A DNA stretch of 56,310 nt, taken from a virus. The first letter of the stretch is position 1. Every line of letters starts with the position of its first letter. Where the stretch lies: the IMG/VR virus record IMGVR_UViG_3300022562_001240. One strand, written 5' to 3'. Of this stretch, positions 27,182 to 49,141 are shown in pieces. Made by a program: the position numbers and the translations under genes. A model generated the notes under the pieces. The model saw nothing but the letters and a program-made list of their open reading frames with translations, ran no database searches and had not been told where the DNA came from.

Positions 27182-27928
27182 ATGGGACTATTCCAAGAAT
27201 ACATGGATGCCAAAGGACAGGTGAAGAAGCCTGTCGTTGACATTCATGGAGGCAAACCGACGCCAGCAACACCGCCGACCAAACCGCCCAAAGAACACGG
27301 AAACGCTCCGTACATCGCCAAAGGCGAAAAAGGCGGAAAGAAAGGGTTCGGCGATCTCGGCGACACAAAGTGTAAGTGTGATGGCAAGGAACCCGCTCCA
27401 GCCAAGATTCCAACAGCCGAACATGCCGAAATTGCAGCGTTGGTTACAGACGTGATGCTGAAAGATGGTGCTCTGGTCGAACAACTGGTCTACCAGTTGA
27501 AGAACAAGGGCCTACTGGGCGTTGTGGTCGCAGAGATGTTGACCTACAAGGAGACGTACCAGCATCTCACAGAAATCATGGCTCACGAATCATATGGTCC
27601 CAAGGTTTGCGGCAAGCTCATTCGTGCCATGAACGAAGAAGTTGCCCCACCACTCAGTGCCAGCCTTGAAGGCGAAGACATTGAGGATGACGCAGACGAA
27701 GCCGAGGAAGGCGATGAATTCGACAATGAATTCTCGGGCGACATGGAAGGCATCGATGATGAAGACATTGACATGCAAGACGCCGACTTCGAGATGGACC
27801 CAGCCCAAGCGGCTGATCCCTTGATGATGGACCCGACCATGCAACAACAAGCTCCGGGCCAAGCTCCAATGGCCCCGCCACACGGTCAAGCAATGATGCA
27901 CCTTCAACGTGCAATGATGAGACGCTAA
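27182..27928 (+). CDS. member of the N-terminal-motif family (MGLFQEYMDA...); acidic centre and Met/Pro/Gln-rich tail
   Basis: AAGGAGAAACC ribosome-binding site. N-terminus MGLFQEYMDAKG. C-terminus ...DPTMQQQAPGQAPMAPPHGQAMMHLQRAMMRR. Confidence 0.5.
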   Translation: MGLFQEYMDAKGQVKKPVVDIHGGKPTPATPPTKPPKEHGNAPYIAKGEKGGKKGFGDLGDTKCKCDGKEPAPAKIPTAEHAEIAALVTDVMLKDGALVEQLVYQLKNKGLLGVVVAEMLTYKETYQHLTEIMAHESYGPKVCGKLIRAMNEEVAPPLSASLEGEDIEDDADEAEEGDEFDNEFSGDMEGIDDEDIDMQDADFEMDPAQAADPLMMDPTMQQQAPGQAPMAPPHGQAMMHLQRAMMRR

Positions 27929-28149
27929 TGAATTTCAAACAATGGTTCGAAGAGACTGAAGCAGAAGAACATGCAAAGCGTAAGATGCTTGGCGCAAAGC
28001 GTTATGCTGCCAATAGTCGTTCGGATCATCTGGGACGCCCCAAAGGTGCGACTGTGGGAGGGAACCCACGGTACAGGGGAGGCAAAGGTTGGTGGACCAA
28101 CGTAGGCCCAACCAGAACACAGGACAAACGAGATGAACGAGAAGAGTGA
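27928..28149 (+). CDS. member of the N-terminal-motif family (MNFKQWFEETE...); small basic protein
   Basis: Start overlaps the previous stop in TAATG. N-terminus MNFKQWFEETEAEE. Confidence 0.45.
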   Translation: MNFKQWFEETEAEEHAKRKMLGAKRYAANSRSDHLGRPKGATVGGNPRYRGGKGWWTNVGPTRTQDKRDEREE

Positions 28150-28360
28150 CGCACGCCCAGCCACAAAAGATCTTCTCGACAGTATTCGTGGCGTCTTCAA
28201 ACACTATAGCAAATCAGCGAGAAGAAAATCGTGGGACGCCCTGATGTCACCGGGTGGCAAGTCCGTCGTCAACAAGTTGATCACCGACCCGAGGGCACCA
28301 GTTGTTGGCATCCCACGATTGCTCCGTTTCAAAGAATGGATCGAATCACTCGATCAGTGA
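28133..28360 (+). CDS. hypothetical protein (75 aa)
   Basis: ORF following the + strand block. Confidence 0.35.
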   Translation: MNEKSDARPATKDLLDSIRGVFKHYSKSARRKSWDALMSPGGKSVVNKLITDPRAPVVGIPRLLRFKEWIESLDQ

Positions 28361-28761
28361 ATCAATCTTCTTCAGATCCTCTTCTGTGAAGTACATCTTG
28401 GCACCTAACTTCTTGGTTGGTCCCGGCAGAAATCCTTCGATGACGTACTTCCTCAAATCGTCATATCTGACATTCAACCAGCGAGCGGCTTCGGCCAGAC
28501 TGTAAAGCTTGTCTCGCAAAATGATTCGTCGAGGGACTGGCTTCAATCTCTTTCGGATGGCACACTCTTTACATCTGAAACCACGACTGAAAGCATTCCA
28601 ACAAGTCATGTTGGTTTTTCCGCAACCTTTGCAACGATACTTCAACCGTTGCTTGCAACCTCGATACTCTTCTGACAGAAGTTCGCAGTTGGCCTTACGG
28701 AAACCCTCTCGGATATCGTCAATCGTAAGCTTCGGTCTTCTAACTCTCTTCTCCTTGGGCA
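28346..28761 (-). CDS. DNA-binding regulator: zinc ribbon plus a C-terminal excisionase/MerR-like helix-turn-helix
   Basis: CKGCGKT...CKEC zinc ribbon. YSLAEAARWLNVRYDDLRKYV helix-turn-helix. Start placed at the ATG at 28761 (MPKEKRV...) with AAGGACAG upstream. Confidence 0.45.
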
Positions 28762-29087
28762 TGTGATCTGTCCTTGTCAAACACGCCATCTGGATACCGG
28801 GCACTCAGCTTCTCGACATTTGCATCGATCACCTCTTGAAGTGAACTGCCAATGGTTCGGGCAGCAAATGCCAGATACCACATGCAATCACCCAGTTCCT
28901 TGACAGCGACTTCCTTTTTCAGTTCTTGACCGTGAAACACGACCTTCTTCATATGGTCGGCAAATTCCCCGGCCTCTCCAGCCAAGCCCAGCCCTCCGAG
29001 ACACAATTGCATTTTCGGTGTCTCTGTCGATTGAGGTGAGGCCAGTTTCAGCACGAATTCTTCGTATTCGGGTAGTGTCTTCGACAT
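28740..29087 (-). CDS. mazG: MazG-like nucleoside triphosphate pyrophosphohydrolase
   Basis: LGLAGEAGEFADHMKKVVFHG...ELGDCMWYLAFAARTIG...ANVEKLSARY matches the MazG/NTP-PPase EExxE helix pattern. Confidence 0.65.
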   Translation of the reverse strand: MSKTLPEYEEFVLKLASPQSTETPKMQLCLGGLGLAGEAGEFADHMKKVVFHGQELKKEVAVKELGDCMWYLAFAARTIGSSLQEVIDANVEKLSARYPDGVFDKDRSHAQGEES

Positions 29088-29098
29088 CCTTGTCTCCT

Positions 29099-29365
29099 TC
29101 AGTACAAAAGTTGTAACGCATCAATGAAAACACGCAGAGCGAGGCACAGTATTCCTGTAGCAGCCACCACGACCATCCAGTCAATGATGGTCCACTGATG
29201 CCACCTCAAAGATGCTCGCAGCCCGGTGGCTTCGGCATCGGAGGCGGCGGCAACCGTTTCTCGATCTCTTCCAGTTTTTGAAGTATCTTGATTTGGTTCT
29301 TCAAAATCTGGCTGATTTGATCGGCGATCAATGTGGGGAAATTCATGGTTGGAACCATTTTCCAT
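29099..29365 (-). CDS. membrane protein (88 aa; C-terminal TM helix)
   Basis: IIDWMVVVAATGILCLAL hydrophobic segment. Confidence 0.4.
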   Translation of the reverse strand: MENGSNHEFPHIDRRSNQPDFEEPNQDTSKTGRDRETVAAASDAEATGLRASLRWHQWTIIDWMVVVAATGILCLALRVFIDALQLLY

Positions 29366-29822: not shown

Positions 29823-29839
29823 CCTTGACTCCTGATGGG

Positions 29840-31249
29840 TTAAGCTGCATCCGCATGTGGGATCGGCTGCAAGCTGTGTCGAATCTTCATCTGCTTACCG
29901 CCACGAGCCGGGCTCAAGAAACGACTGAATCTCAAGTCGTTGATGATTGGCTCCACATCATGCAATCGCAGGCAGTAAGCCACCAGTGAACCGCAAGCCG
30001 AACCACGGCCCGGACCCACGGCTTCTGAGCCATCGCCGAACCCAACAATGCTGGGGCCGACATGGCGAGCTTCATCTGTCATCTGTTTCTGAATCAGGAA
30101 GTAGCTGGAGAAGCCCTTCTCACAGATCAGGTCGTACTCTTCCCGGATGCGGGATGAGTATTCCTTGGTGGCTGGACAACCTCGGGCCTTGAAGCCTCGC
30201 AGGGTCTCTTGCCATAGAAGGTCATCGGCATCTGGAATCTTCGGGAGCTTGATGTCCCTGTCGATCTCAACGCCCTTTGCTTTCTCACAGATGGCGATGG
30301 TGTTTGCTTTGGCTTGTTTGAAGATCTCGTAGTCGATGATGTCTTTGTACTTCAACTCCCACATGGCGTTGAGTTCGTCTTCTGACTTCAGCCACAGATT
30401 GGTGTCCTGAAGCTCAAAGAGATCATCGGCTTGACCGGAATCGATCATGGCCTGCACTTCTTGAATCGTGCGTTTGTTTTGCTGCATCAGCATGAGTCGC
30501 TGATTGTGACTGTGCTCTTTCTTGATCATCGGGAGACCGTACTTCTCGTGTGCCCGAATGAGGAAGGCGTTGTACGGCCCCTGCATCTTCCAGTCGAGCA
30601 TCATCATTTCAAGGTAGAAGTTGTCTCGACCGAGCATGTCGATGTAGTATTCCAACATTTGGAATCCCGCCTCATCGCCGCCCTCAAAGAAGGCTGTGGC
30701 TATTTCGCTGATGCCACAACCACTGGTGAAAATGATGCCTTCCTTGTGTTCTCGGAGAGCATCATGGTTGATTCGAGGGCGATAGTAGTATCCGTGAATC
30801 CACGCCCACGACGACAACCGAACGAGGTTTTGGTAGCCGATGTTGTTATAGGCAATAGCGAGCAGATGACATGATTTGCGGAAGATCTTCTGCTCTGGTG
30901 TTTGGGCTTTCGTCTCGGCATTGGGATCGCCAAGACTCTTGTAGAACTCAGCCGTATCAGAACGAGTGTTGGATTTGGGCTGCATCCGATTGACATACAA
31001 CTCGCAACCGAACAGCGGGTACAAGTTGTGCTTCTCTGCTTGTTCGATCTGCTGGGGAACTGCGCCCATAACCCCGTGATCGGTAATGCAGAGATACTTC
31101 TGGTTGATCTCCTTCATCCGCTGGGCATACTCCCACACCATGGCAAAGCCATCGAGAAGAGAGAAATCCGAGTGTCGGTGAAGATGCTCAAAGCCCATAA
31201 TCGGATGGTGCATTACTCGTCGCCTTCCTTGGTTCCGTTTTGTTGCCAC
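29840..31249 (-). CDS. dnaE: DNA polymerase III alpha subunit (DnaE-type), N-terminal fragment: PHP domain, thumb and start of the palm
   Basis: 469 aa. FEHLHRHSDFSLLDG and ITDHGVM (PHP motifs), then GPGRGSACGSLVAYCL. It ends at ...DLRFSRFLSPARGG, the position just before the catalytic PDxDxDF that opens the second fragment. Confidence 0.85.
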   Translation of the reverse strand: MATKRNQGRRRVMHHPIMGFEHLHRHSDFSLLDGFAMVWEYAQRMKEINQKYLCITDHGVMGAVPQQIEQAEKHNLYPLFGCELYVNRMQPKSNTRSDTAEFYKSLGDPNAETKAQTPEQKIFRKSCHLLAIAYNNIGYQNLVRLSSWAWIHGYYYRPRINHDALREHKEGIIFTSGCGISEIATAFFEGGDEAGFQMLEYYIDMLGRDNFYLEMMMLDWKMQGPYNAFLIRAHEKYGLPMIKKEHSHNQRLMLMQQNKRTIQEVQAMIDSGQADDLFELQDTNLWLKSEDELNAMWELKYKDIIDYEIFKQAKANTIAICEKAKGVEIDRDIKLPKIPDADDLLWQETLRGFKARGCPATKEYSSRIREEYDLICEKGFSSYFLIQKQMTDEARHVGPSIVGFGDGSEAVGPGRGSACGSLVAYCLRLHDVEPIINDLRFSRFLSPARGGKQMKIRHSLQPIPHADAA

Positions 31250-31975: not shown

Positions 31976-32659
31976 CTACTCGGTGCTCCTTAAAGAATCA
32001 AGGTCAGGATAATCGCTGCTTCCCAGAATCCCATCTGCCAAACCATAAAAAACGGCTTCTTCGGCTGACATGTACCAATCGACCTCATCTTTAAGTTTGC
32101 GGTCAAAAAATTTGTATGCCGTATCGTAAGTGGCCGTCTTCTTCCTCTTAAAGAATTCTGCTGTTTCTGAGGAAATGGCTTTTTCGGCAAAGATCTGCAA
32201 CATACGCTTGCAGGCCCGCTCTTGGAACTCGGCTTCGTTTTTCAGAGCGTAGGGATGCACCATTGAGCCTCCCGAGTATCCGTGGTGCATCAAGAAGTGG
32301 CAGTCTGGCATCATGATTCTGAGGTCTGCCGCTTGGAAGATGATGCCGCTCATAGAAGATGTCTGGGAGTATCCCAACATTGTGATCTGGCTGACTGCAT
32401 ACTCGATAGAATTGAAAACCGCCATGCCATTGTCCCAGCACCCACCGGCAGAGTGGAGATGGACCAAAATGGGTTTGTTGGGCGACTGATCGAGCAAATG
32501 CAAATTCTTAATAAAAGTCGTGGCTTGCCGGTAATCGACTCCCGGTTCTGACTCGTCGTCCTTGACATAGTAGCTGTGAAGGTAGATTTCCCTTCGATTG
32601 AGATTCACCTGATGATTGTGGATGTCATAAAGAACTTGATCCTTGGACTGACGGGCCAT
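31976..32659 (-). CDS. ClpP-family serine protease (possible prohead / maturation protease)
   Basis: ILVHLHSAGGCWDNGMAVFNSI (cf. ClpP INSPGGSVTAGMAIYD), catalytic Ser in GYSQTSSMSG, His in FLMHHG, and C-terminal AEEAVFYGLADGIL (cf. EAVEYGLVD). Confidence 0.65.
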   Translation of the reverse strand: MARQSKDQVLYDIHNHQVNLNRREIYLHSYYVKDDESEPGVDYRQATTFIKNLHLLDQSPNKPILVHLHSAGGCWDNGMAVFNSIEYAVSQITMLGYSQTSSMSGIIFQAADLRIMMPDCHFLMHHGYSGGSMVHPYALKNEAEFQERACKRMLQIFAEKAISSETAEFFKRKKTATYDTAYKFFDRKLKDEVDWYMSAEEAVFYGLADGILGSSDYPDLDSLRSTE

Positions 32660-32738: not shown

Positions 32739-33212
32739 ATGAACTTCAAGACTTGGATTGAGAACGAAGCCAGTTTAGGCTCTGGAACCCCAGAAATGGG
32801 TGCGATGCCCATGGTTAATAGGGGGAGCGAAACCCCTGCGTCCGATGCGGTTAAGCAAACTGGCCTCCAACCGCAAGTTGATGCCAAAGAGCTTAAGACA
32901 AAATCTCATAAAGAACAAGATGCAATGCTCGCCATTGACTCAGAAATCGAGCACATGGACATGCAAATCCCTGCCGGGGACGATTCTGAGACTCCCAAAC
33001 TGAACCAGTTCAAACAGCTTTGGGACGCTCTGAAAACAGCTTGGGAAGACATCAAGATGAGCGACAATACGCCCGGCGCAGAAGAGGGTGGTCTCGGCAC
33101 CAACATGGGCGACCCGAAGTATCTGGCGATGATGCAGCAGCACCCGAATATGGTCCCCGCAAGCGGCCAAGGTCAGGGACCACATGGTCCGGGCACTTTC
33201 GGTCAGCAGTGA
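32739..33212 (+). CDS. member of the N-terminal-motif family (MNFKTWIENEASLG...); Gly/Gln/Pro/Met-rich tail
   Basis: N-terminus MNFKTWIENE. C-terminus ...YLAMMQQHPNMVPASGQGQGPHGPGTFGQQ. Confidence 0.5.
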   Translation: MNFKTWIENEASLGSGTPEMGAMPMVNRGSETPASDAVKQTGLQPQVDAKELKTKSHKEQDAMLAIDSEIEHMDMQIPAGDDSETPKLNQFKQLWDALKTAWEDIKMSDNTPGAEEGGLGTNMGDPKYLAMMQQHPNMVPASGQGQGPHGPGTFGQQ

Positions 33213-33538: not shown

Positions 33539-33540
33539 CC

Positions 33541-33861
33541 TTAGTCTCCCATGATCAGCGATCCGAGATCATCGTCGATGCCAGCAGGCTTGACGTATCC
33601 GGTCGCTTCGAGTTTCTTTTGTGTTCGATAGGCATTCCGAAGACTCATACAACAATCTTCGGCACGATCCCATCCTGCCGTCTTCCAGACATCTTTGAGT
33701 GGGCCGACGTTCTGCCAGCCCTTCTCTGTGAGGTATTCAGCCATCACTTTCTCTTCGGCCTGACGAGCCTCTCGCTTCTTTTCCTTTTGCTTCTCTCGAC
33801 GGCGGGTCTTAGAAGCAGGTTCGTTGGCTCGCTTGGCACGTTGCTTTTTGGTTAGTGTCAT
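33541..33861 (-). CDS. hypothetical protein with a basic N-terminus (106 aa)
   Basis: Lys/Arg-rich N-terminus; overlaps the spoVR stop by 4 nt. Confidence 0.4.
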   Translation of the reverse strand: MTLTKKQRAKRANEPASKTRRREKQKEKKREARQAEEKVMAEYLTEKGWQNVGPLKDVWKTAGWDRAEDCCMSLRNAYRTQKKLEATGYVKPAGIDDDLGSLIMGD

Positions 33862-35459
33862 TTCAGGAAATCCTTCTCATATTGTTCTCTGGACATGATG
33901 TGGACATCACTATCCATGTTCGGACCATCGCAGACCAAGACGTATTCTTCCCCGTCAAGGTTCTGAGATCCCAGAACAACCACATTCTGCCAGATCATGT
34001 GAATTGAAGTGAGAACCTCTGTGGCGTACTTGTGGTACAGCGGTCGTCCATCAGCGTAGTGCTGCATGAAGAACCAGCCTTTGCCCAAGTGGTTCGGGTC
34101 GGTCAACCTGATGTCAGGCAAACCGCCATTACAGTAGCGTTGGAGCATCTGTTTCTTGACTTCCTTGAAATCACGAGACGTGATCTTCCACTCGCCCGTT
34201 GACATGCGGCGGTAGGTGTAATACTGCATCTTCTCGGCGAACTCTGGAGTGAAGAATTCGTTGATCAAGGTGTAGTCGTTGTAATACTTCCTGACTTCGA
34301 AGACCTTCTCCATGCCGAGCCCAAGTTTCTTATCCCACTTGGCCTTCTCCCGCATGTTGGTGCATTCTTCCCATTCCTTGCCGAACTTGCCCTTGTTCCA
34401 TCGATCTTCGATGTCCAAGAGAAGCTCGAAGCCCAGCTTGTATGGGTTCTGACTCCACTGACCTCCCAAGACTCGCATCTTGTGTTCGGCATAGTGCCAG
34501 ATACCAGCCGCTTCATCGTCCTGTCCGAGTGAGGCAAGGCCCTCCCGACAGAGTAGGTGGTAATCGACGAAACTGGCCCAACCTTCATTGATCATCTTCG
34601 TTTGTCGCTGAGGTTGGAAGTACATGGACTCATCATAGAGCATCGAGATGATGTCTTGCTGCCACGGCTTGAGTGGAGCATTATTCTTCAAGAATCCCAT
34701 GATGTCTCGATCAGCACGACCGAACAGGCCAAGGAATTCCGAAGCTTCTTTCTTCTCAATTCTCTCGTGTTCCTTCTCGATGTACGAGTCGGGGTTGACC
34801 CATTCGTCCATGTAGTCATGAGTGGATTTCAAACGTCTGGGAAAATGGTATTTTCTTTCATCCCTGACATTCTTGTTTTCAATCTTCTTTCGCTTCCATG
34901 CCTTCTGAGGATCAATGAGCGTTTCGATTCGCATCACATGGTCGATGAACTCTGTGACACGCTCGCCGCCCCAACGCTTCATGTACTGACGAATTCGAGT
35001 GCTGTGATTCGCCAGCTTGTTCATCATGTTTTCGTCAGTCGGCCCAAAGAAAATGTTGTTCTTGAAGAAGTCGTTGTGGCCGATGGCGTGACAGATAACG
35101 TCCACGTTGTCTACCAACGTGTTCGAGTCCATGCAGTAGATGTAACATGGATTGGTGTTGATCACCATTTCCGAGATACGGTACTGGTTGTATTCGTAAC
35201 CACGACTCATTTCCTCATATTCCATTCCCCACTTCCAGTGTGGGTATCGGACAGGGAAACCGCCGTAGCTGGCAAGCTCAGCCATTTCGTCGTAGCGGAC
35301 AAATTCAACGATGATGGGATAGTAGTCCAACCCCATATCCCTGCAAGCCTTCTCCATCTGAGGAAGCAGTTCCTCCACTTCCTTGTGGATCTTCAGACCG
35401 GGAATGTTGTTGTCACCAACCAGAATTGGTGTCCCGCTCATCATGTTAGATTTTGACAT
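33858..35459 (-). CDS. spoVR: SpoVR-family protein (YcgB-like)
   Basis: 533 aa. ...YPHWKWGMEYEE...NTNPCYIYCMDSNTLVDNVDVICHAIGHNDFFKNN... matches the SpoVR core. Confidence 0.8.
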   Translation of the reverse strand: MSKSNMMSGTPILVGDNNIPGLKIHKEVEELLPQMEKACRDMGLDYYPIIVEFVRYDEMAELASYGGFPVRYPHWKWGMEYEEMSRGYEYNQYRISEMVINTNPCYIYCMDSNTLVDNVDVICHAIGHNDFFKNNIFFGPTDENMMNKLANHSTRIRQYMKRWGGERVTEFIDHVMRIETLIDPQKAWKRKKIENKNVRDERKYHFPRRLKSTHDYMDEWVNPDSYIEKEHERIEKKEASEFLGLFGRADRDIMGFLKNNAPLKPWQQDIISMLYDESMYFQPQRQTKMINEGWASFVDYHLLCREGLASLGQDDEAAGIWHYAEHKMRVLGGQWSQNPYKLGFELLLDIEDRWNKGKFGKEWEECTNMREKAKWDKKLGLGMEKVFEVRKYYNDYTLINEFFTPEFAEKMQYYTYRRMSTGEWKITSRDFKEVKKQMLQRYCNGGLPDIRLTDPNHLGKGWFFMQHYADGRPLYHKYATEVLTSIHMIWQNVVVLGSQNLDGEEYVLVCDGPNMDSDVHIMSREQYEKDFLK

Positions 35460-36454
35460 TACTCGGTTCTCCTCCAGATATCATCCACATCATACGAGAT
35501 ATCTGTAATTAACTCAAGCTCTTCCCGCACTCTTCTTATAGGTTCCGACCAATCTCCTTCGGTCGATTGCCAGAAGAGTTTAACCGTGTCGTACCACATG
35601 GTTGTTTTAGAACGATCCCACAAAGGATTATCGTCGGATTTCATCAATCCAAAAGTTGGTTTGTTCATGGTGCCTGCCAAATGAAGGACAGATGAGTCTG
35701 TCGCAATGACCGCATCCATGGCGTCGATCAAAATTGCCACGTCGTTGAAATCGTATGTTGATGGCATCAACATTGATTCGGTGTTGGGCAAGGTGTAAAT
35801 GTTCCATCCCGATTCTTTAAGGACGGCCATTTGTTCCTCGGGGATTTGTTTGACGTGCAAACCACAAGCGGGCCGATTGGGCTGTATTGCCGCCTCGCCG
35901 TGAGGCAGAATCTCTGGCTGCCAAGGAACTTTGGTCTTCAGAATGACCGATCTGTCGGCGGGATAGTAGTGATCCAACTTGAGGCCACTCAACAGAGCCG
36001 GGATGCACATGATGTTGGTGTGGTAATCGCAAAGGACATGCTGATTGGTGAACTCATCCACGAACCAAACATCTTCCATCAATTTCTTTAAGGCTTCGTA
36101 GGCCGAGTAGCAATTCAGCACGATGCGACATTCCCATTCCCGCTTCAAAGCGGCGAGATATCTAAAGAAATTGATGGTGTTGCCGATGTTGAAGTCCGTG
36201 AACACTTCAATGGACGATCCACGCAGGGACTCCCCCCGCCAGTTGCGGCCAAAGTGTTTGGAAAGGTCTGGACGTGATGCGCCCAGTGTGTCTGAAACAA
36301 TCAGGCTGTAGAGTTCGCCGATGAGTTCGTGACTGGGATCTAATTTGCGGATAACTTCCAACAACTTGACGGCTTTATCGGGCAAGCCGATCCAGTAGTA
36401 GTTGTTGACAGTCGCCAGACCTTGATCAAGATACTGTTTGGAGTCCCGTGCCAT
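35459..36454 (-). CDS. GT9-like glycosyltransferase (heptosyltransferase family), paralog C
   Basis: VIATDSSVLHLAGTMNKPTFGL matches the GT9 D-SG-MHLA-A-G-P motif better than paralogs A and B do. Confidence 0.5.
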   Translation of the reverse strand: MARDSKQYLDQGLATVNNYYWIGLPDKAVKLLEVIRKLDPSHELIGELYSLIVSDTLGASRPDLSKHFGRNWRGESLRGSSIEVFTDFNIGNTINFFRYLAALKREWECRIVLNCYSAYEALKKLMEDVWFVDEFTNQHVLCDYHTNIMCIPALLSGLKLDHYYPADRSVILKTKVPWQPEILPHGEAAIQPNRPACGLHVKQIPEEQMAVLKESGWNIYTLPNTESMLMPSTYDFNDVAILIDAMDAVIATDSSVLHLAGTMNKPTFGLMKSDDNPLWDRSKTTMWYDTVKLFWQSTEGDWSEPIRRVREELELITDISYDVDDIWRRTE

Positions 36455-37289
36455 GAATGCTGTCCCTCAACTCTCGAATTTCCTGATGCGTCGGATCGTC
36501 GCTTTCATCGAGATTGACAAGGAACTCGTCGGACACTTCTGGCCTTCCGCCCTTGGGATAGCAGAAAATGTTCAACGAATTGCCTGCATTCAAGACATCC
36601 ACCTTGTGATACTTGAAGTTGTCTGGATTGTAGACAGGAGTTTCATGCAACTCCCAGTCATAACCCACATGCTCCACGAATCTCAAAATGTCTTCCCTGT
36701 TGTCGGCAAAGTTCACATACAACAGAGGGGTGGACCTATCGATGGTGCGACGGCAACCATTCAGTACAGAAAGCTCCATGCCCTGCACTGACACCTTAAT
36801 CAACTTGGGCTTCGCCAAGTTGACATCATCGATGGCAATTGATGCTACCGGATTATCACATTTACGTCCATCTCGGTCCTTGGCATTCAACAATGTCGCC
36901 AAGCTGATTTGTGATAGATCGACTTCACCATTGATGTCAACCGATGGGAAGTAACAGACGCCTTTGCTGGAATCTGTCACCGAACGGTTGAATGCTTGGA
37001 TGTTGGTGATCTGGTTGAGAGCGATGTTGCCGCACAACATGAAGTACAGGAACGTGTGAGCCTCAATTGCCAAGACGTAACCCTCTGAGGTAACGTGCTT
37101 CGCCAAAGGAATCGTGATCGATCCAATGTTGGCCCCAACATCAACGACCACATCACCCTTGTCAGTCAGCTTCTTCAAGAATTCTACCTTGAAAGAATTG
37201 ACTTCTCCGTAGGTGTCCAGAGAACGACCTACCAATTGATCGTTCTCTAAGAACATCATGTCTCCATACTTCGTGCTGCTGACTTTCAT
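36426..37289 (-). CDS. FkbM-family methyltransferase, copy 1
   Basis: VVDVGANIGSITIPLA plus the family-typical downstream architecture. Paralog of 52872-53705. Confidence 0.65.
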   Translation of the reverse strand: MKVSSTKYGDMMFLENDQLVGRSLDTYGEVNSFKVEFLKKLTDKGDVVVDVGANIGSITIPLAKHVTSEGYVLAIEAHTFLYFMLCGNIALNQITNIQAFNRSVTDSSKGVCYFPSVDINGEVDLSQISLATLLNAKDRDGRKCDNPVASIAIDDVNLAKPKLIKVSVQGMELSVLNGCRRTIDRSTPLLYVNFADNREDILRFVEHVGYDWELHETPVYNPDNFKYHKVDVLNAGNSLNIFCYPKGGRPEVSDEFLVNLDESDDPTHQEIRELRDSIHGTGLQTVS

Positions 37290-38530
37290 GCTGCTGCCTC
37301 TCTCTTATCGTTTTCTTTGCCCAAGATCTTACGGATGGCTTCGATGATCTGCTCGTTGCGATCTTCTTCGCTGAGATTGGGGGCATAACCCCAGTTCCCG
37401 AATCCGAAGTTCCCATCATCGTTATCCGATTCATCGGGGCCGACATTGGCCGTCTCGATATAAGAAGAGTCCAACTTTCCGCCTTTTAGGGCGTTGTCGA
37501 GGTGTTGTTTCACACTATCTTCGTATCTCCAAGAACAAACCTGCGTCATGCCCAACAGATTAACCTTGCTGGGACCGAGTTCTTCTTTGATGATCTTGAT
37601 CATCCGGCTGTTGTCGTCGCCCCAGTTGTCACCATCTGAGAAGTAGAAGATGTAGACGTTGTACTTCTCTGGCGGATATCTGTTTTCCAACTGATCCGCA
37701 ATGGCCCGGAACGCCGACGAACACATTGTTCCACCACCATAACGATAGGTGTAGAACGCCTCTTCGTTGACTTCCTGTGCTCTGGTGTCGTGGACAAAGT
37801 AGCAACGATCCACCTTGTCATAGAATTTTCTGATCCAGCAGTCGATCCACCAACTCATGTCGCTGACAATATCGCAGCGATAGTCGTCCATCGACGCCGA
37901 GCAGTCTCGGGCGAAGAAGATGACAGCATTCGAGGAAGGAATCTTGATCTGTTTGTACTGTCGATATCTGAAGTCGTTGTTGATGGGCGTCAGCAATCGA
38001 ACTGGCACCTTGCAGCCCGGCACCCACTGGAGGTTCTCCAGTTCGCCGGTCATCGACAATCGCTTCAGTGCTTCCTTCATCGTTCGACGAGGATGGCGCA
38101 ACGCTTGCAAACCGACCCGAGAGATATCGTTGTACTTGATCTTGATCTCTTCGTAGGTTTCATTGGGCTTGGGCCTCATGCGAGGCAACTTCAGTTCGTC
38201 CTGCATGAACCGCAGAACGTCATCCATATCGATAGTGATCTGGATGCCTTCACCGGGATCTTCCCCAGCTTTGTTGCCACCCTTGCCCGGTTGTGGGTCT
38301 CGCCCAACAACGTCGCCTTCTTTTCCCGGCCCACGACCGACACCTTCCCCGTTGCTTCCAAACACGAAGCGAGGAATCTCGATCTGCGGGATAGAGATCG
38401 TCATCTTGCCGCCCTTGGGCCGCTGACGAACGATGGACCCCGACTTGATCAGTCTTTTCAATTCACGTCGGGTGCGTCCAGAGATCACATCTCTGAACTT
38501 CTTATGATCTTCTTGGATTCTCTTTGGCAT
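37286..38530 (-). CDS. yhbH: YhbH/YeaH-family protein (DUF444, vWA-like)
   Basis: N-terminal FRDVISGRTRRELKRLIKSG...ISIPQIEIPRFVFG, then a Gly-rich segment, then DCSASMDD and FSDGDNWGDD. Confidence 0.75.
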   Translation of the reverse strand: MPKRIQEDHKKFRDVISGRTRRELKRLIKSGSIVRQRPKGGKMTISIPQIEIPRFVFGSNGEGVGRGPGKEGDVVGRDPQPGKGGNKAGEDPGEGIQITIDMDDVLRFMQDELKLPRMRPKPNETYEEIKIKYNDISRVGLQALRHPRRTMKEALKRLSMTGELENLQWVPGCKVPVRLLTPINNDFRYRQYKQIKIPSSNAVIFFARDCSASMDDYRCDIVSDMSWWIDCWIRKFYDKVDRCYFVHDTRAQEVNEEAFYTYRYGGGTMCSSAFRAIADQLENRYPPEKYNVYIFYFSDGDNWGDDNSRMIKIIKEELGPSKVNLLGMTQVCSWRYEDSVKQHLDNALKGGKLDSSYIETANVGPDESDNDDGNFGFGNWGYAPNLSEEDRNEQIIEAIRKILGKENDKREAAA

Positions 38531-38610
38531 GATGCTCCCCTTGTGTAAGAAAAGAGGGCGATAGCGGTAGAGTAACGATCAACCACCACTACCGCCCCCA
38601 ACGTCCGTCA

Positions 38611-40695
38611 TTACTCGGAGACATCGCCTCTGGCAAAGATGCTGCTCACATAATCGAGCACATCAGTAGCCGACTGCTGGTTGTATCCGCACTGCTTAAT
38701 CAATCGAGTCTTGATGGCATCGATCTTTTCTTGCAGATCGGGGTCCAACTCGGCAGCTTCTTTTGTCAAAGCCGACAACTTGATCGTGTCTTTGACATCT
38801 TCAAAGACCTTGGCTTCAAGAGCCCGCTTCAACTCAGGATTGCTGTCCCAGCGGAACTTTTTGTCCCGAGAAGCCAGCGTGCCGATAAAGGCGGCGAGCG
38901 AACGTCGGAAGTCGTCACAACCCTGTTCGGGGATGCCGTTCTTCTCTTCAATGCTACGCATCAGTCGCTCGTCGGGGTCCATGAGGTTGCCCGTAATCGG
39001 GTTCTCCATCTTCTCGTCATTGACGTAGGCGATCACGTTGTCAACGTATTTGTTGCACAGTCGTTCAATGGCCTTCTCATCGGCGACGAGAGCACGTTGG
39101 ACCTCGTTTTTCAGGATTTCGTCGAGTTCCTTGATTGCCAATTCGACACAGAACTCATACTTCTTCCTGTCCTCCACCTTGGTAATCAGCGACGAGTGAC
39201 CCAAACCTTCCTTGATTTCGCTGAGCACATGGAACACGTTCACATAATGCTTGCGGCGAGCCAATTGGTTCGAGATCTTGTCCTGCACATATCGTGCAGA
39301 CACGCCACCGATCATACCTTCATCTGGGAACTTGTCCCGAAGCTCCTTCACGGTATCTTCGGTCCAGCCCGGAAGCTGACGGCCATCATAAAGTTTGGCC
39401 TTGTCCCGCAGATCGAGTTTCCCCTCACCGTCATCGTGTAAACGAGTCAGAATGGCGAAGAAAGCAGCGATCTCCAAAGTATGTGGCATGATGTGTTGCT
39501 TGACTTTTCCGGGACCATACAGGTGTTCCAGAATCTTCTGCTCATCCGACCAGCGAAGCAGGTACGGCACATCCACCTTGACGGTTCGGTCACGAAGAGC
39601 TTCCATGAACTGGTTGTTCTTGAGCTTTTCGTACTCGGGGTTGTTCGTGTGAGCAATGATCAACTCATCGATCACAATCTGAGGGAACTTCTTCGGCTTG
39701 ATCTGGTGCTCTTGAGACGCTCCCAGAAGATCGTAGAGAAATGCGTTGTCGAGCTTCAACATTTCGATGAATTCACAGATGCCTCGGTTGGCAACTTGGA
39801 ATTCGCCGTCGAAGTCGAAAGCACGAGGATCTGAGTCGGCCCCGAAGTGGCCGATCTTGCGATAGTTCATATCGCCGGTGAGTTCCGTGCTGTCCTGATT
39901 CTTCTCGTCCTTGGGCTGGAATGTTCCGATGCCCACACGATCCGTTTCAGAGTGACATCTGCGGACCACCACGATGTGGTTGTCGATGACCTTCTGCCAA
40001 TCCCCATCATAGGTCTTGAGCAGGTGGTTCAAGAACAGCTTGCAGCGGGGATTGATCTCTCCCTCACAGATCAGCTTGTAGAGACTGTCCTTGTCGTCAT
40101 CACTCGCCATGTCTGTGAACGTGGCGTTGAGATCCTTCAAGAACTCCTGCCGCATGGGAATCGGCATCAGCTTCAAAGGATTTTCGTTGAGAGCCGCATC
40201 GCAGGTGTCATTCAGGTAGATCGCATTCTGCCCTTCGAAGGGAAGATTGACCCACTTGTAAGTGTACCATGCACCAGCATTGGTGCGGCTGTAGCGTTCC
40301 AGACCTCTCTTCAAGAGGCGGCAGATGGTGGATTTCGACGAACCCACCGGACCATGCAGCAAGAGCACACGCTTCTCGGTTCCATAAGAACCGGCTGCAC
40401 CGTGAATGAAATCGACAAGACCCTGAAGAGTCTTCTCTTCCAATCCGAAGATCGGAAGGGTGTCGTCGTCGAAGAAGTGGTATCTGGTGTGTGTCTTTCG
40501 ATAACGCTCGAAAGTGCTGGTGCCCTTTTCCATGATCATGTCATAGACATATTGGAAAGCGTTACGGGCCAGCGTTGGCCGCTTCATGACCAAGTTCAGG
40601 TAGTCGCCATACGACATTTCTTCGTTCAAGGCGAGAAACTGTTCTCGATCATAAAGTTCAGCGTACTTGCTTAAGAAAGTAGTTGTGTTCTCCAT
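38611..40695 (-). CDS. prkA: PrkA-family serine protein kinase (YeaG-like, AAA-type N-domain)
   Basis: 694 aa. Walker A LLLHGPVGSSKSTI and PrkA-like organisation throughout. Confidence 0.8.
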   Translation of the reverse strand: MENTTTFLSKYAELYDREQFLALNEEMSYGDYLNLVMKRPTLARNAFQYVYDMIMEKGTSTFERYRKTHTRYHFFDDDTLPIFGLEEKTLQGLVDFIHGAAGSYGTEKRVLLLHGPVGSSKSTICRLLKRGLERYSRTNAGAWYTYKWVNLPFEGQNAIYLNDTCDAALNENPLKLMPIPMRQEFLKDLNATFTDMASDDDKDSLYKLICEGEINPRCKLFLNHLLKTYDGDWQKVIDNHIVVVRRCHSETDRVGIGTFQPKDEKNQDSTELTGDMNYRKIGHFGADSDPRAFDFDGEFQVANRGICEFIEMLKLDNAFLYDLLGASQEHQIKPKKFPQIVIDELIIAHTNNPEYEKLKNNQFMEALRDRTVKVDVPYLLRWSDEQKILEHLYGPGKVKQHIMPHTLEIAAFFAILTRLHDDGEGKLDLRDKAKLYDGRQLPGWTEDTVKELRDKFPDEGMIGGVSARYVQDKISNQLARRKHYVNVFHVLSEIKEGLGHSSLITKVEDRKKYEFCVELAIKELDEILKNEVQRALVADEKAIERLCNKYVDNVIAYVNDEKMENPITGNLMDPDERLMRSIEEKNGIPEQGCDDFRRSLAAFIGTLASRDKKFRWDSNPELKRALEAKVFEDVKDTIKLSALTKEAAELDPDLQEKIDAIKTRLIKQCGYNQQSATDVLDYVSSIFARGDVSE

Positions 40696-40802: not shown

Positions 40803-41060
40803 TTAAGAAATCGACTTCAAAACAGAAGGCACAGTCATTGGTCTGTTGGGTCCGAGGCCCGGACCAGCAGGACGTGCGGGCTTCGTTGCTTTTGGCCCAG
40901 CTTTCATCATGTTTCTGATGGCATCGCCTCGACCCATACCAAATGGTGGTTTCACATCTTTGATCATCAGCTTGAAGATGTTCTTTTCGCCACCAGCTTT
41001 TCCGACTGGGCCGTAGAGACCATGAAGTTCTTCGTTCTGTAAGAATTCCTTAAACCTCAT
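40803..41060 (-). CDS. member of the N-terminal-motif family (MRFKEFLQNEELHG...); Pro/Gly/Lys-rich tail
   Basis: GAGGATGA ribosome-binding site. Start overlaps the previous stop in ATGA. Confidence 0.45.
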   Translation of the reverse strand: MRFKEFLQNEELHGLYGPVGKAGGEKNIFKLMIKDVKPPFGMGRGDAIRNMMKAGPKATKPARPAGPGLGPNRPMTVPSVLKSIS

Positions 41061-41428
41061 GACTTTTTCATCCTCTTCAACATCATCTTCTTCATGCCGA
41101 ACATCTTCGGTTTCGGAATCTTCAAACCTTGAATGGGGGAATCGAGAGACATCTTGAAAGCGACGTTGCCAGCATTGGTCGCACCACCAATCTTCGGCGG
41201 AACAATCTTATCCATGCCCCAGCCCACATCCTTCAAGAATGTTTTGTTCAATGAAGATGGGTTCCCAGAAAGATCCATCCAGTTTGTTTGACGGTCGGAG
41301 AACTTGGGTGACTGTTGAAGAAATTGCGAAGACTTCTCCGTCGCCTGACTCGTTTGAGTGGCTTGATTATCACGGGTTCCGTCAGAACCCACTTCGATCT
41401 CATTGTACAGCCATGCCTTAAATCTCAT
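41057..41428 (-). CDS. member of the N-terminal-motif family (MRFKAWLYNEIEVG...); Met/Lys-rich tail
   Basis: Start placed at the ATG at 41428 by analogy with the other family members. The longer track ORF begins at a GTG at 41491. Confidence 0.4.
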   Translation of the reverse strand: MRFKAWLYNEIEVGSDGTRDNQATQTSQATEKSSQFLQQSPKFSDRQTNWMDLSGNPSSLNKTFLKDVGWGMDKIVPPKIGGATNAGNVAFKMSLDSPIQGLKIPKPKMFGMKKMMLKRMKKS

Positions 41429-41445: not shown

Positions 41446-41724
41446 CTACTCCCACTTCTCCACACCGTCTTCCCAATAGTGCAAAATCCACTTTCCGCTA
41501 GTGGAGAAGTATTTCCGGTCGATCACGATCTGCCCATCATGAACTCTTCGATGGCAATTAGAACATGTGACTACAGTGTTGTAGTCTGTATATTCGCCGC
41601 CCTCTTCGCCCGGAACAATGCGGTGGCAATCCAACAAGGCGTAGTCGTCAATATCGCAGAAGTAGCACTTTCCTTCGAGACGCTTCTTAGACTTCTTATC
41701 AATAAGTTTTTTCGGCCTTGCCAT
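41446..41724 (-). CDS. HNH endonuclease
   Basis: CYFCD...LDCHRIVPGEEGGEY...NTVVTCSNCHRRVH is an HNH / zinc-finger nuclease motif. Confidence 0.6.
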   Translation of the reverse strand: MARPKKLIDKKSKKRLEGKCYFCDIDDYALLDCHRIVPGEEGGEYTDYNTVVTCSNCHRRVHDGQIVIDRKYFSTSGKWILHYWEDGVEKWE

Positions 41725-41768
41725 ATAACCTCCTCTTGCATAGATATGGTAACGAAAAGGAGGTTTCT

Positions 41769-41945
41769 ATGCGAGCACTATCTGCTTTGCTCCTCGGCCT
41801 CGCCCTGTGTTTCTCAGTGGGCTGCTCTTCTTCTGACAAGTGTTGCGACGATGGTTGCCACTGCCAAAAGGACGGTAAGTGTTGCTGTGAGAACGGCGAA
41901 TGCAAAGAGGGCTGCGATTGCGTCAACTGCGATTGCAAGAAATAA
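41769..41945 (+). CDS. metallothionein-like Cys-rich lipoprotein (58 aa)
   Basis: AAAGGAGG ribosome-binding site 7 nt upstream of the ATG at 41769. Signal/lipobox MRALSALLLGLALCFSVGC, then CCDDGCHCQKDGKCCCENGECKEGCDCVNCDCKK (14 Cys in 35 residues). Confidence 0.55.
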   Translation: MRALSALLLGLALCFSVGCSSSDKCCDDGCHCQKDGKCCCENGECKEGCDCVNCDCKK

Positions 41946-46088: not shown

Positions 46089-46280
46089 GGAAGTCTCCTA
46101 AAATGAAAATATGGGGCTCATCGACACCGCTGACCCTCATACTCAACGCTGAAAAACAATCTTGAACCTTGGTCAACAATGCACGGTCGGTGCCCCATGA
46201 ACCGCCAGCGGGGTGCCACTGAGTTTATGGAAACAATTTACGTCACCAACGCAAGTTGCGTGACTTCCAAATGCTATTGG

Positions 46281-46320
46281 ATCTTAAGGAATGTGTCAAC
46301 CTCACTCTCTTAAGGAATGA
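46281..46320 (+). promoter_or_regulatory. two direct copies of CTTAAGGAATG in a divergent intergenic region
   Basis: Copies at 46283-46293 and 46309-46319. The second overlaps the ATG at 46317. Confidence 0.3.
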
Positions 46321-46979: not shown

Positions 46980-46989
46980 GGTAAAACAA

Positions 46990-47301
46990 ATGGAACGCTT
47001 TTTTGATAACGACCCAGAACGAGAGCACAAATTCTTCGAATCGCTTCATGATGAAGATGATTTGGAGATGGAGCTAGACGAAGATGCAATCGCCTACCTT
47101 GACCCAGAAGGCGTCATGCAAGTCATGAACATCGATCTGGCCCACAGCGAACTGAAGCATCACCTAATCAGCAAGGCTGTAGAGATCTGTGAGAAGAGCT
47201 TCTTGTGGAAGTTCAAAGGCATCAAAACAAAGATGCGAGAAATCCACGTCGTCTATGAATGGCTGAAGCTGATGACCGAAGACGACCCAAATGAGGAATA
47301 G
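46990..47301 (+). CDS. hypothetical acidic protein (103 aa)
   Basis: ORF in the same + strand block. Confidence 0.4.
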   Translation: MERFFDNDPEREHKFFESLHDEDDLEMELDEDAIAYLDPEGVMQVMNIDLAHSELKHHLISKAVEICEKSFLWKFKGIKTKMREIHVVYEWLKLMTEDDPNEE

Positions 47302-47303
47302 AA

Positions 47304-47666
47304 ATGCCAATCTACGAATTCGAATGTAATGAATGTCATGAAAAGTTTGACGACTTGGTAACTATGAGCAAAGCTGAAACGTGCCCAGACACCAAGTGTC
47401 CAAAATGCGAATCCAAAAATTGGACTAAGCTTGTAAGCTGCCCCAATTTCATGTTCACCAACCCGGTAGGCACTGACCGGTGGAACAGCAGTTCCTCCGG
47501 TCATGACTATCGCTTCAAACACAACATCCCAAAGGTGAAGGCCGAGCGTGAGATGGCCGAGCAACTGTCGCACATGGGTTCGAATCCCTATGGTGATACC
47601 TCGGACAAAGACATCCAGATGGACACCGGAATTCACGACGCCGACTCAAGGCCGGGCCTAAGCTGA
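47304..47666 (+). CDS. FmdB-family zinc-ribbon protein
   Basis: MPIYEFECNECHEKFD...CPKCES is the FmdB pattern YE(Y/F)xCxxC...CPxC. Confidence 0.5.
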   Translation: MPIYEFECNECHEKFDDLVTMSKAETCPDTKCPKCESKNWTKLVSCPNFMFTNPVGTDRWNSSSSGHDYRFKHNIPKVKAEREMAEQLSHMGSNPYGDTSDKDIQMDTGIHDADSRPGLS

Positions 47667-48077
47667 TGTGAGAGCCTGAAGCAAATCGTATTCCCGTCTG
47701 AACTGTGGGAATCGTGCGATATATGGCAAGATGTTTTCCCTGACCGTGGCTTCCATGTTCAGGACATAAGGATCGTCAGTTGAATTGTCGTTGCTCAGCA
47801 CGTCGATCAACTGACCCAGCCATTGTCGAACCATTGGCTCTTGAGCATTCCCGCTGACAATTTTCTGAGCGATTGAATCGATGTTCGCCAAGACGTTTTC
47901 CTGCACCTGCGGCTGCTTCTTGGGCTGCTTCTCTTTCTTGGGAGGATCTTCCTCAAACATCGTAGAAACCATGGGAGGCCACATGCGTCTCCACATGGGG
48001 ATGGAAATCCGCCTGAACCCAGCGATGTCGCCGGTCGAGGTTCCAACTTCCTTCAACAACCATTCTTTGAATCCCAT
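47658..48077 (-). CDS. member of the N-terminal-motif family (MGFKEWLLKEVGTS...)
   Basis: Start overlaps the upstream stop in ATGA. Confidence 0.45.
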   Translation of the reverse strand: MGFKEWLLKEVGTSTGDIAGFRRISIPMWRRMWPPMVSTMFEEDPPKKEKQPKKQPQVQENVLANIDSIAQKIVSGNAQEPMVRQWLGQLIDVLSNDNSTDDPYVLNMEATVRENILPYIARFPQFRREYDLLQALTSA

Positions 48078-48643
48078 TACATTCCTCCCATCGGTGGCCC
48101 GCCCATCGGTGGTGCGCCTCCCATTGGAGGACCACCCATCGGTGGCCCGCCCATACCCATACCGCCGCCGCCACCAGCAAGTGGCTCAACCCATGCGTCC
48201 ATCAACTGTTCCAAGTTCATTTGCTCTGTTTGATCTTCGACAGGGCCATCCCAGTAAAGCGGGTTCTGGTCACTGCTGTATCTGTGAATGAACAGTTTAG
48301 GGTTATCTTGGTACATCATTGCCAACGGAAACGTCACTTCGTAGGTCTCATCCCCTCGATCTTTGATCGAAACATTGATGTTTCCAGCAACTCTGAAAGG
48401 CCAACCAAAATCAGGAATCTTCGGGCCATAGAGCATCACGCTGTCAGATTCCAATGCAGCAGAAAAATCTTCGTCTCGAATCCCAAACTCACGACCAAGC
48501 ACTTCAGGATGGTGCTTATTAGTCGTTTTGTTTTGAGGATCAGACGGTGGTGCGGCATCAGCACCCATTGGTGGTGCTGCTTCATCTTCTCTCAACTTGC
48601 AGGAGAAGGAATGCTCTCTGATGAATTCACGAAATCTGGTCAT
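48077..48643 (-). CDS. member of the N-terminal-motif family (MTRFREFIREHSFS...) with a C-terminal (GGPPMGG)n tail
   Basis: Start placed at the ATG at 48643; the track ORF begins at a GTG 27 nt upstream. The tail is ...GGGGGMGMGGPPMGGPPMGGAPPMGGPPMGGM. Confidence 0.45.
   Translation of the reverse strand: MTRFREFIREHSFSCKLREDEAAPPMGADAAPPSDPQNKTTNKHHPEVLGREFGIRDEDFSAALESDSVMLYGPKIPDFGWPFRVAGNINVSIKDRGDETYEVTFPLAMMYQDNPKLFIHRYSSDQNPLYWDGPVEDQTEQMNLEQLMDAWVEPLAGGGGGMGMGGPPMGGPPMGGAPPMGGPPMGGM
48085..48155. repeat. imperfect tandem repeat of about 15 bp (CCCATCGGTGGcccg) within the CDS
   Basis: Repeat units at 48087, 48102 and 48135 encode the GGPPMGG units. Confidence 0.5.
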
Positions 48644-48688
48644 GTCAAAGGTATATATTAAGGCAGACACAGTTTGGCGAGGTGATAA

Positions 48689-49141
48689 GTGGCAACTTTT
48701 AAGACATGGCTATTTGAGGAAGAAGAGTTAGATGGGAAGATCAACTCCCTTCTCGACTCGGAAGGCTTCATCTTGTTCTTCAAGAAAGACGATGATTTCT
48801 TTGGTGTATCAGAGGACGGGCGAATTGTTTTCGCCAAGATGAAAAACCCCGAGGATGAAGATCTGCCGTCTGGATGGGAAGATGAAGCCAGCTTTTCTGC
48901 CCAGAATCTCACCAAGAAAATGAAGGGGGAACCCGCCACTCACCTCTTCAAGAAGGAAGACCTGAACTCGATCAAAGTCATGGATCGGGAGAAAATGTTC
49001 GCAGAACTGAAGAAGATCGCCGAAGGTCTCGGGGACGAAGCGTTCAAGAAAGACCCCGGATTCAGGGTCATCGACATCGCCAGCTTGTTCCAACGTGAGC
49101 CTGATGAGGCTCCCAATTTTGTCAGGGCAGACGAGGAGTAA
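48689..49141 (+). CDS. member of the N-terminal-motif family ((V)MATFKTWLFEEEELDG...)
   Basis: GTG start at 48689 with a GAGGTGA ribosome-binding site 4 nt upstream. Confidence 0.45.
   Translation: MATFKTWLFEEEELDGKINSLLDSEGFILFFKKDDDFFGVSEDGRIVFAKMKNPEDEDLPSGWEDEASFSAQNLTKKMKGEPATHLFKKEDLNSIKVMDREKMFAELKKIAEGLGDEAFKKDPGFRVIDIASLFQREPDEAPNFVRADEE

Follow-up and report, generated by a model that had tools for sequence, protein, structure and literature searches.

Why should eight genes of one virus, scattered over 22 kb, encode proteins that open with almost the same ten residues and then have nothing recognizable in common? The question is raised by IMG/VR virus record IMGVR_UViG_3300022562_001240, a stretch of 56,310 nucleotides analysed here at its full length (the window), in which the eight genes lie between positions 27,182 and 49,141. 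Nearly all that is known of huge phages (200-700 kb) comes from metagenomes, and no function has been assigned to the majority of their genes. A first-pass annotation, made from the letters alone, had listed eight open reading frames (ORFs) with a common N-terminus and had likened it to the capsid-targeting sequences of bacteriophage T4 internal proteins. All eight are present with the coordinates, strands, and starts that it gave them (Table 1). The evidence described below makes it rather probable that the shared N-terminus, hereafter the tag, is a T4-type capsid-targeting sequence and maturation propeptide carried by an expanded set of packaged proteins.

A conserved tag on otherwise dissimilar proteins

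The tag forms the extreme N-terminus (residues 1-10) of the primary product, and the starts agree with the gene calls of JGI. Those calls are independent, were made on an identical 19.6-kb contig, and give the same lengths for five of the eight proteins (188, 139, 150, 123, and 85 amino acids, aa), while the 248-aa product of 27182-27928 is also a called protein in a public collection. The pattern was written as the regular expression (regex) M.{1,2}[FYW][KRQ].[FWY][LIVFMY] and scanned at every ATG, GTG, and TTG followed by at least 45 codons. Twelve matches were obtained in the window, comprising the eight tagged genes and four spurious internal or antisense sites, against a mean of 0.75 and a maximum of 4 matches in 100 runs of a first-order Markov null. 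The core motif is also specific to protein starts: in an 85-gene set it was found at 8 of 170 N-terminal positions versus 5 of 16,870 internal positions (odds ratio 167, Fisher p = 1e-13). A ninth, tag-only copy was found at 28319-28360. Either it is a truncated remnant, with nothing left but the tag, that abuts the convergent gene 28346-28789, or ORF 28133-28360 carries a copy of the tag at its C-terminus.

Past the tag, BLASTP of residues 13 onward detected no similarity among the eight, and Pfam and PHROGs searches with all members gave no matches except one sub-threshold RIX1. The codons of the conserved residues vary synonymously between members (TTC/TTT, AAA/AAG, and TTG/CTG/TTA/ATT), and because the codons differ, the constraint acts on the protein. 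Conservation at the protein level had been claimed from such differences, and it is borne out by orthologues in 18 related IMG/VR contigs that retain the tag. At these 18 PrkA-anchored loci, syntenic orthologues of six of the eight members were found, in which the tag is kept and the remainder of the protein drifts. Orthologues of 32739-33212 occur at five loci (L003-L006 and L008), those of 40803-41060 at four, with their position unchanged (L003, L005, L007, and L008), those of 41057-41428 at the same four, and those of 48689-49141 at two (L007 and L008). No orthologue of 27928-28149 was found among the fetched loci.

The tag is more abundant still in LR756511.1, an uncultured phage with a complete genome of 595 kb that was fetched whole. 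Its sequence yielded 36 regex matches against 3-13 under the null, and about 25 of these are plausible members by inspection, dispersed around the genome with a few clusters. Pooling the window, LR756511.1, and 98 IMG/VR loci gave 147 non-redundant members. Numbered from the first aromatic residue, these have Phe at position 0 in 89%, Lys, Arg, or Gln at +1, Trp, Phe, or Tyr at +3 (100%, by construction of the regex), and Leu, Ile, Val, Phe, or Met at +4. Glu stands at +8 in 44% and at +7 in 20%; it occurs somewhere from +6 to +9 in 76% of members versus 22% of internal control windows, and the context [LIVM]-x-E is found in 46% versus 7% of internal controls. A search for a shared promoter or k-mer upstream of the 147 members gave nothing convincing, and Shine-Dalgarno motifs were rarer there than upstream of background genes (29% vs. 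48%).

Correspondence with the T4 capsid-targeting sequence

The T4 genes ipII and ipIII start with MKTYQEFIAE in the T4 record and ipI with MKTFKEFT, and the family regex, run over 54 kb of T4, matches ipII and ipIII only. MKTYQEFIAE is the capsid-targeting sequence of T4 and is cleaved once by gp21 (PMC8442874). Mutagenesis of IPIII assigned targeting to residues 4 and 7 and processing to residues 8 and 10, and Asp at position 10 stops processing but not targeting (PMC9026906). These four determinant positions are the positions conserved across the 147 members. Three window members, those starting at 27182, 48643, and 48689, have the T4-like combination of F4 with Y, F, or W at position 7, and the other five have the same aromatic pair (i and i+3) at positions 3 and 6. 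The window tag closest to T4 is MTRFREFIRE of 48077-48643. The tag of 27182-27928 belongs to a T4-like offset-2 class (F4, Y7, M8) without Glu10; among its 60 homologues MGLFQEY(L/M)(D/N)(S/A)KG is almost invariant, with variants such as MKTFNEYL, which together with MKTFREFLQVRE and MKTFKDWMQLKE exemplifies the T4-like tags of relatives.

The agreement is less complete around the Glu. The (L/I)-x-E context of T4 cleavage, to which the first-pass annotation had appealed, is strictly present in 47658-48077, 48077-48643, and 48689-49141, and does not hold for the other five members. Three of those (32739, 41060, and 41428) read [LI]-x-N-E, similar to the L-M-N-E junction of the capsid protein of the clade described below, and neither form occurs in 27182 and 27928, the latter reading FEETE. 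Orthology with IPI, IPII, or IPIII is not supported: besides the Pfam and PHROGs negatives given above, the only similarity seen to these proteins is in the tag, no pairwise comparison of the mature regions having been made.

Head machinery of the clade

Megablast of positions 27000-50000 against 50,697 phage records returned no match. At the protein level, the PrkA of the window has 62% identity to that of LR756511.1 and 77-79% identity to the PrkA proteins of several IMG/VR contigs, of which one measures 458 kb. The window belongs to a clade of huge phages in which LR756511.1 is a complete relative. The window itself is a non-structural region, holding PrkA, DUF444, SpoVR, a split DnaE, a TPP enzyme, a DHH protein, dCMP deaminase, MazG, ThyA, DHFR, and a ClpP-family protease.

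A T4-type head module is found in LR756511.1. Searches with phmmer of T4 proteins against all its ORFs matched gp17 (5e-28), gp20 (1e-33), gp21 (1e-22), and gp23 (3e-35), and Pfam recognized Gp23 (PF07068, 2.5e-86), Peptidase_S77 (PF03420, 2.5e-27), Portal_T4 (PF07230, 2.6e-73), and a T4-type terminase. Between the protease and capsid genes, at the position of gp22, lies a 310-aa coiled-coil-like ORF. Directly downstream of the capsid gene and on the same strand are two large tagged proteins, one of 486 aa with a PRTase domain (MDFKEWYFINE, from an AGGAGG-N4-GTG start) and one of 1076 aa (MEFREWFRSAE). The clade capsid protein recurs at 78-92% identity in 373-388 IMG/VR contigs, and in two of these it occurs together with a PrkA that has 65-66% identity to that of the window.

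Two other features of LR756511.1 were recorded. The T4-type portal contains an intein splicing domain (PF14890; 531014-533587, L031 31014-33587, minus strand), and a second, divergent Peptidase_S77 paralogue lies far from the head module (242243-243154, L025 42243-43154, minus strand).

A module that copies the capsid maturation junction

Member 47658-48077 links the tag to the capsid protein directly. Its N-terminal module begins with the tag MGFKEWLLKE, continues with a copy of the capsid N-terminal arm (VGTSTGDIAGFRRISIPMWRRMWPP) and a linker rich in Lys, and closes with an invariant PQVQE. BLASTP aligned residues 7-38 with capsid protein residues 45-76 at 17 of 32 identities (53%, E = 2e-11), setting LLKE/VGTSTGDIAGFRRISIPMWRRMWP of the member against LMNE/VSTDTGDVAQFKRISIPLVRRIYP at the predicted maturation junction of the capsid protein, which reads ...AVLLENQRLMNE VSTDTGDVAQFKRISIPLVRRIYPQLIANKIVSVQP and in which the Pfam Gp23 model begins just past the junction. 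Because the member aligns to this junction, its tag Glu falls exactly at the expected capsid cut point. The maturation site of T4 gp23, E65/A66, lies at most two residues from the NE/V junction of the clade when the two proteins are aligned (FLTE/AEIGG in T4, sequence checked in the record). The member is not itself a gp23-family capsid protein: only residues 7-38 match, it has no Pfam Gp23 domain, and it is 139 aa long.

Homologues of this member have about 60 N-terminal residues in common, ending in a Lys-rich stretch and an invariant P-Q-V-x-E, after which they diverge completely. In the nearest relatives they measure 61-63 aa (L005, L007, and L008), 124-129 aa (L003 and L004), and 227 aa (L006). 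A profile search of 1.84 billion cluster representatives placed the module in 142 clusters at 50% identity and also matched N-terminal fragments of the capsid protein. The module is N-terminal in most of these clusters and C-terminal in a few (e.g. P0041), an arrangement that looks like the fusion of adjacent genes, and many proteins in relatives consist of the module only (57-68 aa). The attached cargo includes DUF5661; in one cluster a 2H phosphoesterase above the Pfam thresholds for 2_5_RNA_ligase2 and Acb1, with Acb1 as its best but weak match in PDB (E = 0.036); in one cluster an RF-1/ArfB GGQ domain (5e-16); and in one cluster a weak ParB_N match. The remaining domains have no Pfam match.

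The PQVxE of the 47658-type family is probably a second cleavage site that would release the variable cargo, with (Q)PQV-x-E standing at the boundary between module and cargo (47900-47915, minus strand). A similar motif, LQPQVD(A)xE, is found in the 32739-type family (32865-32885, plus strand). As a general second motif, PQ[VLI] was tried and rejected, being confined to the 32739-type and 47658-type orthologous groups.

The short tag is modular in the same sense. It stands on unrelated small proteins in the window and on enzymes in relatives, where it is fused to UvrD helicase, AAA_33 kinase, C39 peptidase, and PRTase domains.

Proposed function and alternatives

In the mechanism that we favour, residues 1-10 would form a short amphipathic helix whose two aromatics, three residues apart, and following aliphatic residue make up one hydrophobic face. 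This helix would dock the protein onto the gp22-like scaffolding core during prohead assembly. After closure of the shell, the gp21-type (S77) prohead protease of the clade would cut behind the Glu 7-8 residues past the first aromatic, and the mature protein would be kept in the capsid and exit with the DNA at infection. In 47658-48077 the tag is followed by a copy of the first ~25 residues of the mature capsid protein, the Lys-rich linker, and PQVxE. We infer scaffold binding, cleavage, packaging, ejection, and effector function of the tagged proteins alike. Because T4 uses the same tag to load proteins into its capsid, the tag probably marks, by analogy, proteins that are injected into the host with the DNA. 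The likeness to T4 capsid targeting that the first-pass annotation had proposed has gained support, the strongest of which comes from the match at the four T4 determinant positions, the head machinery of the clade, the continuity of tag and capsid junction in the 47658-type copy, and the modular attachment of the tag to unrelated proteins, enzymes included. An anti-defence role would rest on one Acb1-like cargo from a relative, and the module-only proteins and the low-complexity tails would be compatible with some members being assembly factors and not injected effectors.

Several observations weigh against capsid targeting. The strict T4 (L/I)-x-E rule fits only three of the eight window members, 27182 has no Glu near position 10, and in about half of the members the tag lies one residue closer to Met1 than in T4. 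Module-only relatives are numerous (57-68 aa), which would be unexpected if the module served for delivery alone. The neighbours of the tagged genes belong to metabolism and replication, and the T4 late promoter TATAAATA is not enriched upstream of the 147 members (0.7% vs. 1.0%). The clade has no cultured relative, the closest cultured capsid proteins being 30-33% identical, and the S77 protease, scaffold, and capsid genes are not in the 56-kb window, so that for this phage they are deduced from relatives. Among the matches listed, the nearest relatives (PrkA 77-79%) are not linked to the capsid gene on one contig, and IMGVR_UViG_3300023179_000009 was not returned among the best 80 loci of either of two capsid/S77 scans.

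Some of the same facts would fit a different fate for the tagged proteins. They could be targeted to the prohead and cleaved there, yet serve as core or scaffold accessories like T4 gp22, gp67, and gp68, to be degraded and expelled as assembly factors. The many relatives that carry the long module alone and end at PQVxE speak for this, as do the largely low-complexity or disordered sequences of several window members, the copying of a capsid-protein assembly element by the 47658-type module, and the degradation of T4 core proteins by the same protease (PMC9026906). We nevertheless regard it as rather unlikely, given that the tag is also carried by folded enzymes (helicase, kinase, C39 peptidase, PRTase, 2H phosphoesterase, and RF-1 domain), which make little sense as scaffold, and that close relatives differ in their cargo but retain the tag, a pattern typical of conflict-driven effectors. 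It is clearly unlikely that the helix docks instead to a hub outside the capsid, such as a phage chaperone, a replication or transcription factory, or a membrane, and resembles T4 by convergence. Amphipathic aromatic helices are common docking motifs, metabolic and replication genes surround the tagged genes, these have no shared late promoter, and the GroEL-like (PPMGG)n-M tails hint at a chaperone connection; but the match to T4 covers all four determinant positions, Glu included, the tag runs straight into the capsid maturation junction in one family, and two large tagged genes adjoin the capsid gene in LR756511.1.

The first-pass annotation had also pointed to the ClpP-like gene at 31976-32659 as a partner protease, and the tag could be read as an N-degron or adaptor signal for timed degradation by it. 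The gene is adjacent to and divergent from 32739, an adjacency kept in L003 and L004. However, LR756511.1, with its 36 regex matches, has no ClpP homologue at E < 1e-5, and because of this absence the gene is unlikely to be the partner and is probably irrelevant to the tag. The ClpP-like gene is moreover present at only 7 of the 18 PrkA-anchored loci, and a degron would leave the capsid-junction identity and the similarity to the T4 tag unexplained. The pairing was rejected on this co-occurrence evidence, and we hold a degron to be very improbable. Hardly any probability attaches to the last alternative, a chance pattern or a paralogous family whose N-terminus diverged more slowly, with no signal function. 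Adjacent members (27182/27928, 41428/41060, and 48643/48077) could suggest tandem duplication, but the tag is attached to unrelated Pfam domains and its N-terminal specificity is high by the Fisher test given above; the idea that the eight are diverged paralogues was rejected because no similarity was detected beyond the tag.

A broader form of the capsid-targeting reading can be put forward tentatively, with the balance somewhat against it. The clade might have adopted the T4 tag as the common address of a large and rapidly evolving set of injected proteins, dozens per genome and enzymes among them, and the ~60-residue module might be a second-generation signal that docks cargo by mimicking capsid-subunit contacts and is cut at both ends by S77. 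With polymorphic cargo that includes an Acb1-like anti-CBASS phosphoesterase and an ArfB-like peptidyl-tRNA hydrolase, the tag would then predict first-strike effectors of uncultured phages from sequence only.

If the tag works as in T4, a ten-residue pattern would tell which proteins of uncultured phages ride in the capsid and reach the host first. Candidate anti-defence or takeover factors could then be shortlisted, for which the Acb1-like phosphoesterase, the ArfB-like domain, and the helicase, kinase, and peptidase of relatives are examples. Packaging of the T4 kind, which is in use for delivering proteins, would be extended to far larger capsids and more cargo types, and mimicry of the capsid N-terminal arm by one family points to a way of docking that has not been described for T4.

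Individual members and neighbouring genes

The tagged genes are listed in Table 1 with the ClpP-family gene. Three pairs are translationally coupled through TAATG or ATGA overlaps (27182/27928, 41428/41060, and 48643/48077); in the first, the downstream start overlaps the upstream stop (TAATG). In the 48689 member a Val had been placed before the Met, which proved mistaken: there is no V-M, the GTG being itself the start codon, preceded by a GAGGTG Shine-Dalgarno sequence, and the protein reads M-A-T-F-K. The low-complexity tails ascribed to most members, rich in Met, Pro, Gly, and Gln or in Met and Lys, are present in about five of the eight and absent in 27928, 47658, and 48689. Met-rich basic tails recur, with ..AMKNFQRAMMGKR in 27182-type homologues and KMFGMKKMMLKRMKKS in 41057-41428 (41057-41110, minus strand).

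Table 1. Tagged genes of the window and the adjoining protease gene (a slash marks the predicted cut after Glu).
Feature	Positions	Strand	Tag	Remarks
Tagged protein, 248 aa	27182-27928	+	MGLFQEYMDA	Acidic middle, Met-rich basic tail
Tagged protein, 73 aa	27928-28149	+	MNFKQWFEETE	Start overlaps upstream stop (TAATG)
Tag-only copy	28319-28360	+	(M/L)LRFKEWIESLDQ, then stop	End of ORF 28133-28360; TTG CTC CGT TTC AAA GAA TGG ATC GAA TCA CTC GAT CAG TGA
ClpP-family protease	31976-32659	-		PF00574, E = 2.4e-19; adjoins member 32739
Tagged protein, 157 aa	32739-33212	+	MNFKTWIENE/ASLGSG	Conserved TPASD..GLQPQVD motif, Q/G/P-rich tail; divergent from ClpP-like gene
Tagged protein, 85 aa	40803-41060	-	MRFKEFLQNE	Second of coupled tandem pair (ATGA overlap), just upstream of PrkA
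Tagged protein, 123 aa	41057-41428	-	MRFKAWLYNE/IEVGSDG	First of tandem pair, Met/Lys-rich tail
Tagged protein, 139 aa	47658-48077	-	MGFKEWLLKE	Long N-terminal module and variable C-terminal cargo domain
Tagged protein, 188 aa	48077-48643	-	MTRFREFIRE	Second L-R-E site (residues 17-19), folded core 60-155, (PPMGG)n-M tail
Tagged protein, 150 aa	48689-49141	+	MATFKTWLFEEEE; MATFKTWLFE/EEE	GTG start; divergent from 48643 across 45-bp spacer

Member 48077-48643 has 22 homologues, all of which keep the tag, an invariant L17-R-E19 with (D/E)-E-A-A-P, the folded core, and the (PPMGG)n-M tail. In its AlphaFold2 model, residues 4-10 are helical, 16-47 are disordered, and 60-155 form a core with pLDDT of about 80, followed by a disordered tail; the invariant L-R-E falls in the predicted disordered linker. 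Foldseek of this model against PDB and BFVD gave nothing with E < 0.04. The tail (48077-48180, minus strand), present in all 22 homologues, recalls the (GGM)4M tail of GroEL.

Several other genes of the window were noted. DNA polymerase III alpha is split into two genes about 9 kb apart on the minus strand, the first (29840-31213) encoding the PHP domain and the first ~100 positions of pol3_alpha and the second (18204-21086) the remainder of pol3_alpha together with the finger and HHH domains. A complete triad of PrkA, DUF444 (YeaH), and SpoVR occupies 33858-40695 (minus strand) of this phage genome, with a GT9-like glycosyltransferase and an FkbM methyltransferase between SpoVR and DUF444; PrkA is conserved across the clade and is also found in Thermus phages. 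At 41718-41945 (plus strand) a Cys-rich ORF combines a lipoprotein-like signal (MRALSALLLGLALCFSVGC) with a metallothionein-like domain rich in CC and CxC. On the opposite strand a hydrophobic 56-aa ORF overlaps it, and this hydrophobic ORF is the one called by JGI. The ClpP-family gene, which lies among non-structural genes, scores better with PHROG families for "head maturation protease" (1e-15) than with ATP-dependent protease families (1e-6). At 49540-50235 (plus strand), adjoining the three-gene tagged cluster, is a protein with a TnsA-like endonuclease N-terminal domain and a zinc-finger N-terminus.

Comparison with known packaging systems

T-even phages are known to have capsid-targeting tags and internal proteins that are polymorphic (PMC9026906, PMC3012670), and the T4 internal proteins are the closest parallel to the family described here. 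Both have an N-terminal tag of about ten residues in which an aromatic pair (i and i+3) precedes an aliphatic residue and, in most members here, Glu; in both, one tag is common to proteins with unrelated mature parts, and the cargo is hypervariable between relatives. The T4 protease gp21, scaffold gp22, and capsid protein gp23 have their counterparts in relatives within the clade, namely an S77 protease of the gp21 type, a candidate gp22-like scaffold, and a capsid protein of the gp23 type. The differences lie in number and register: T4 has three tagged genes, whereas at least eight are found in 22 kb here and about 25 in the 595-kb relative; the Glu follows the first aromatic by six residues in T4 and by 7-8 here; and about half of the tags are one residue nearer Met1. 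Large enzymes are found among the cargo of the clade, and Met/Pro/Gly-rich or Met/Lys-rich tails are common.

T4 Alt, gp67, and gp68 are comparable as enzymes or core components taken into the prohead, where gp21 trims them after Glu. Alt, a packaged ADP-ribosyltransferase, is trimmed at both termini (PMC9026906). Its N-terminus, MELITELFDE, differs in not having the F-K-x-W pattern, and no homology of Alt, gp67, or gp68 to any window member was found.

In phiKZ, 201phi2-1, and SPN3US the cleavage logo is S/A/G-x-E. The inner-body and ejection proteins of these phages offer a parallel from giant phages, in which many packaged proteins are cut after Glu by a gp21-related protease and ejected (PMC5694885, PMC7411985), but they have long propeptides, no short common N-terminal tag, and a different capsid lineage. 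The Dar anti-restriction proteins of phage P1 are likewise packaged in the head through N-terminal signals and processed during assembly (PMC9024508, PMC12810830). Their incorporation differs in being hierarchical and partner-dependent, and the proteins, protease, and capsid type are unrelated. No account of a tag family of this kind in huge phages turned up in the literature searches. What is new here is the scale (at least eight tagged genes within 22 kb, and some 25 in the relative of 595 kb), the enzyme cargoes, the shifted register of the tag, and a 60-residue module that mimics the capsid N-terminal arm.

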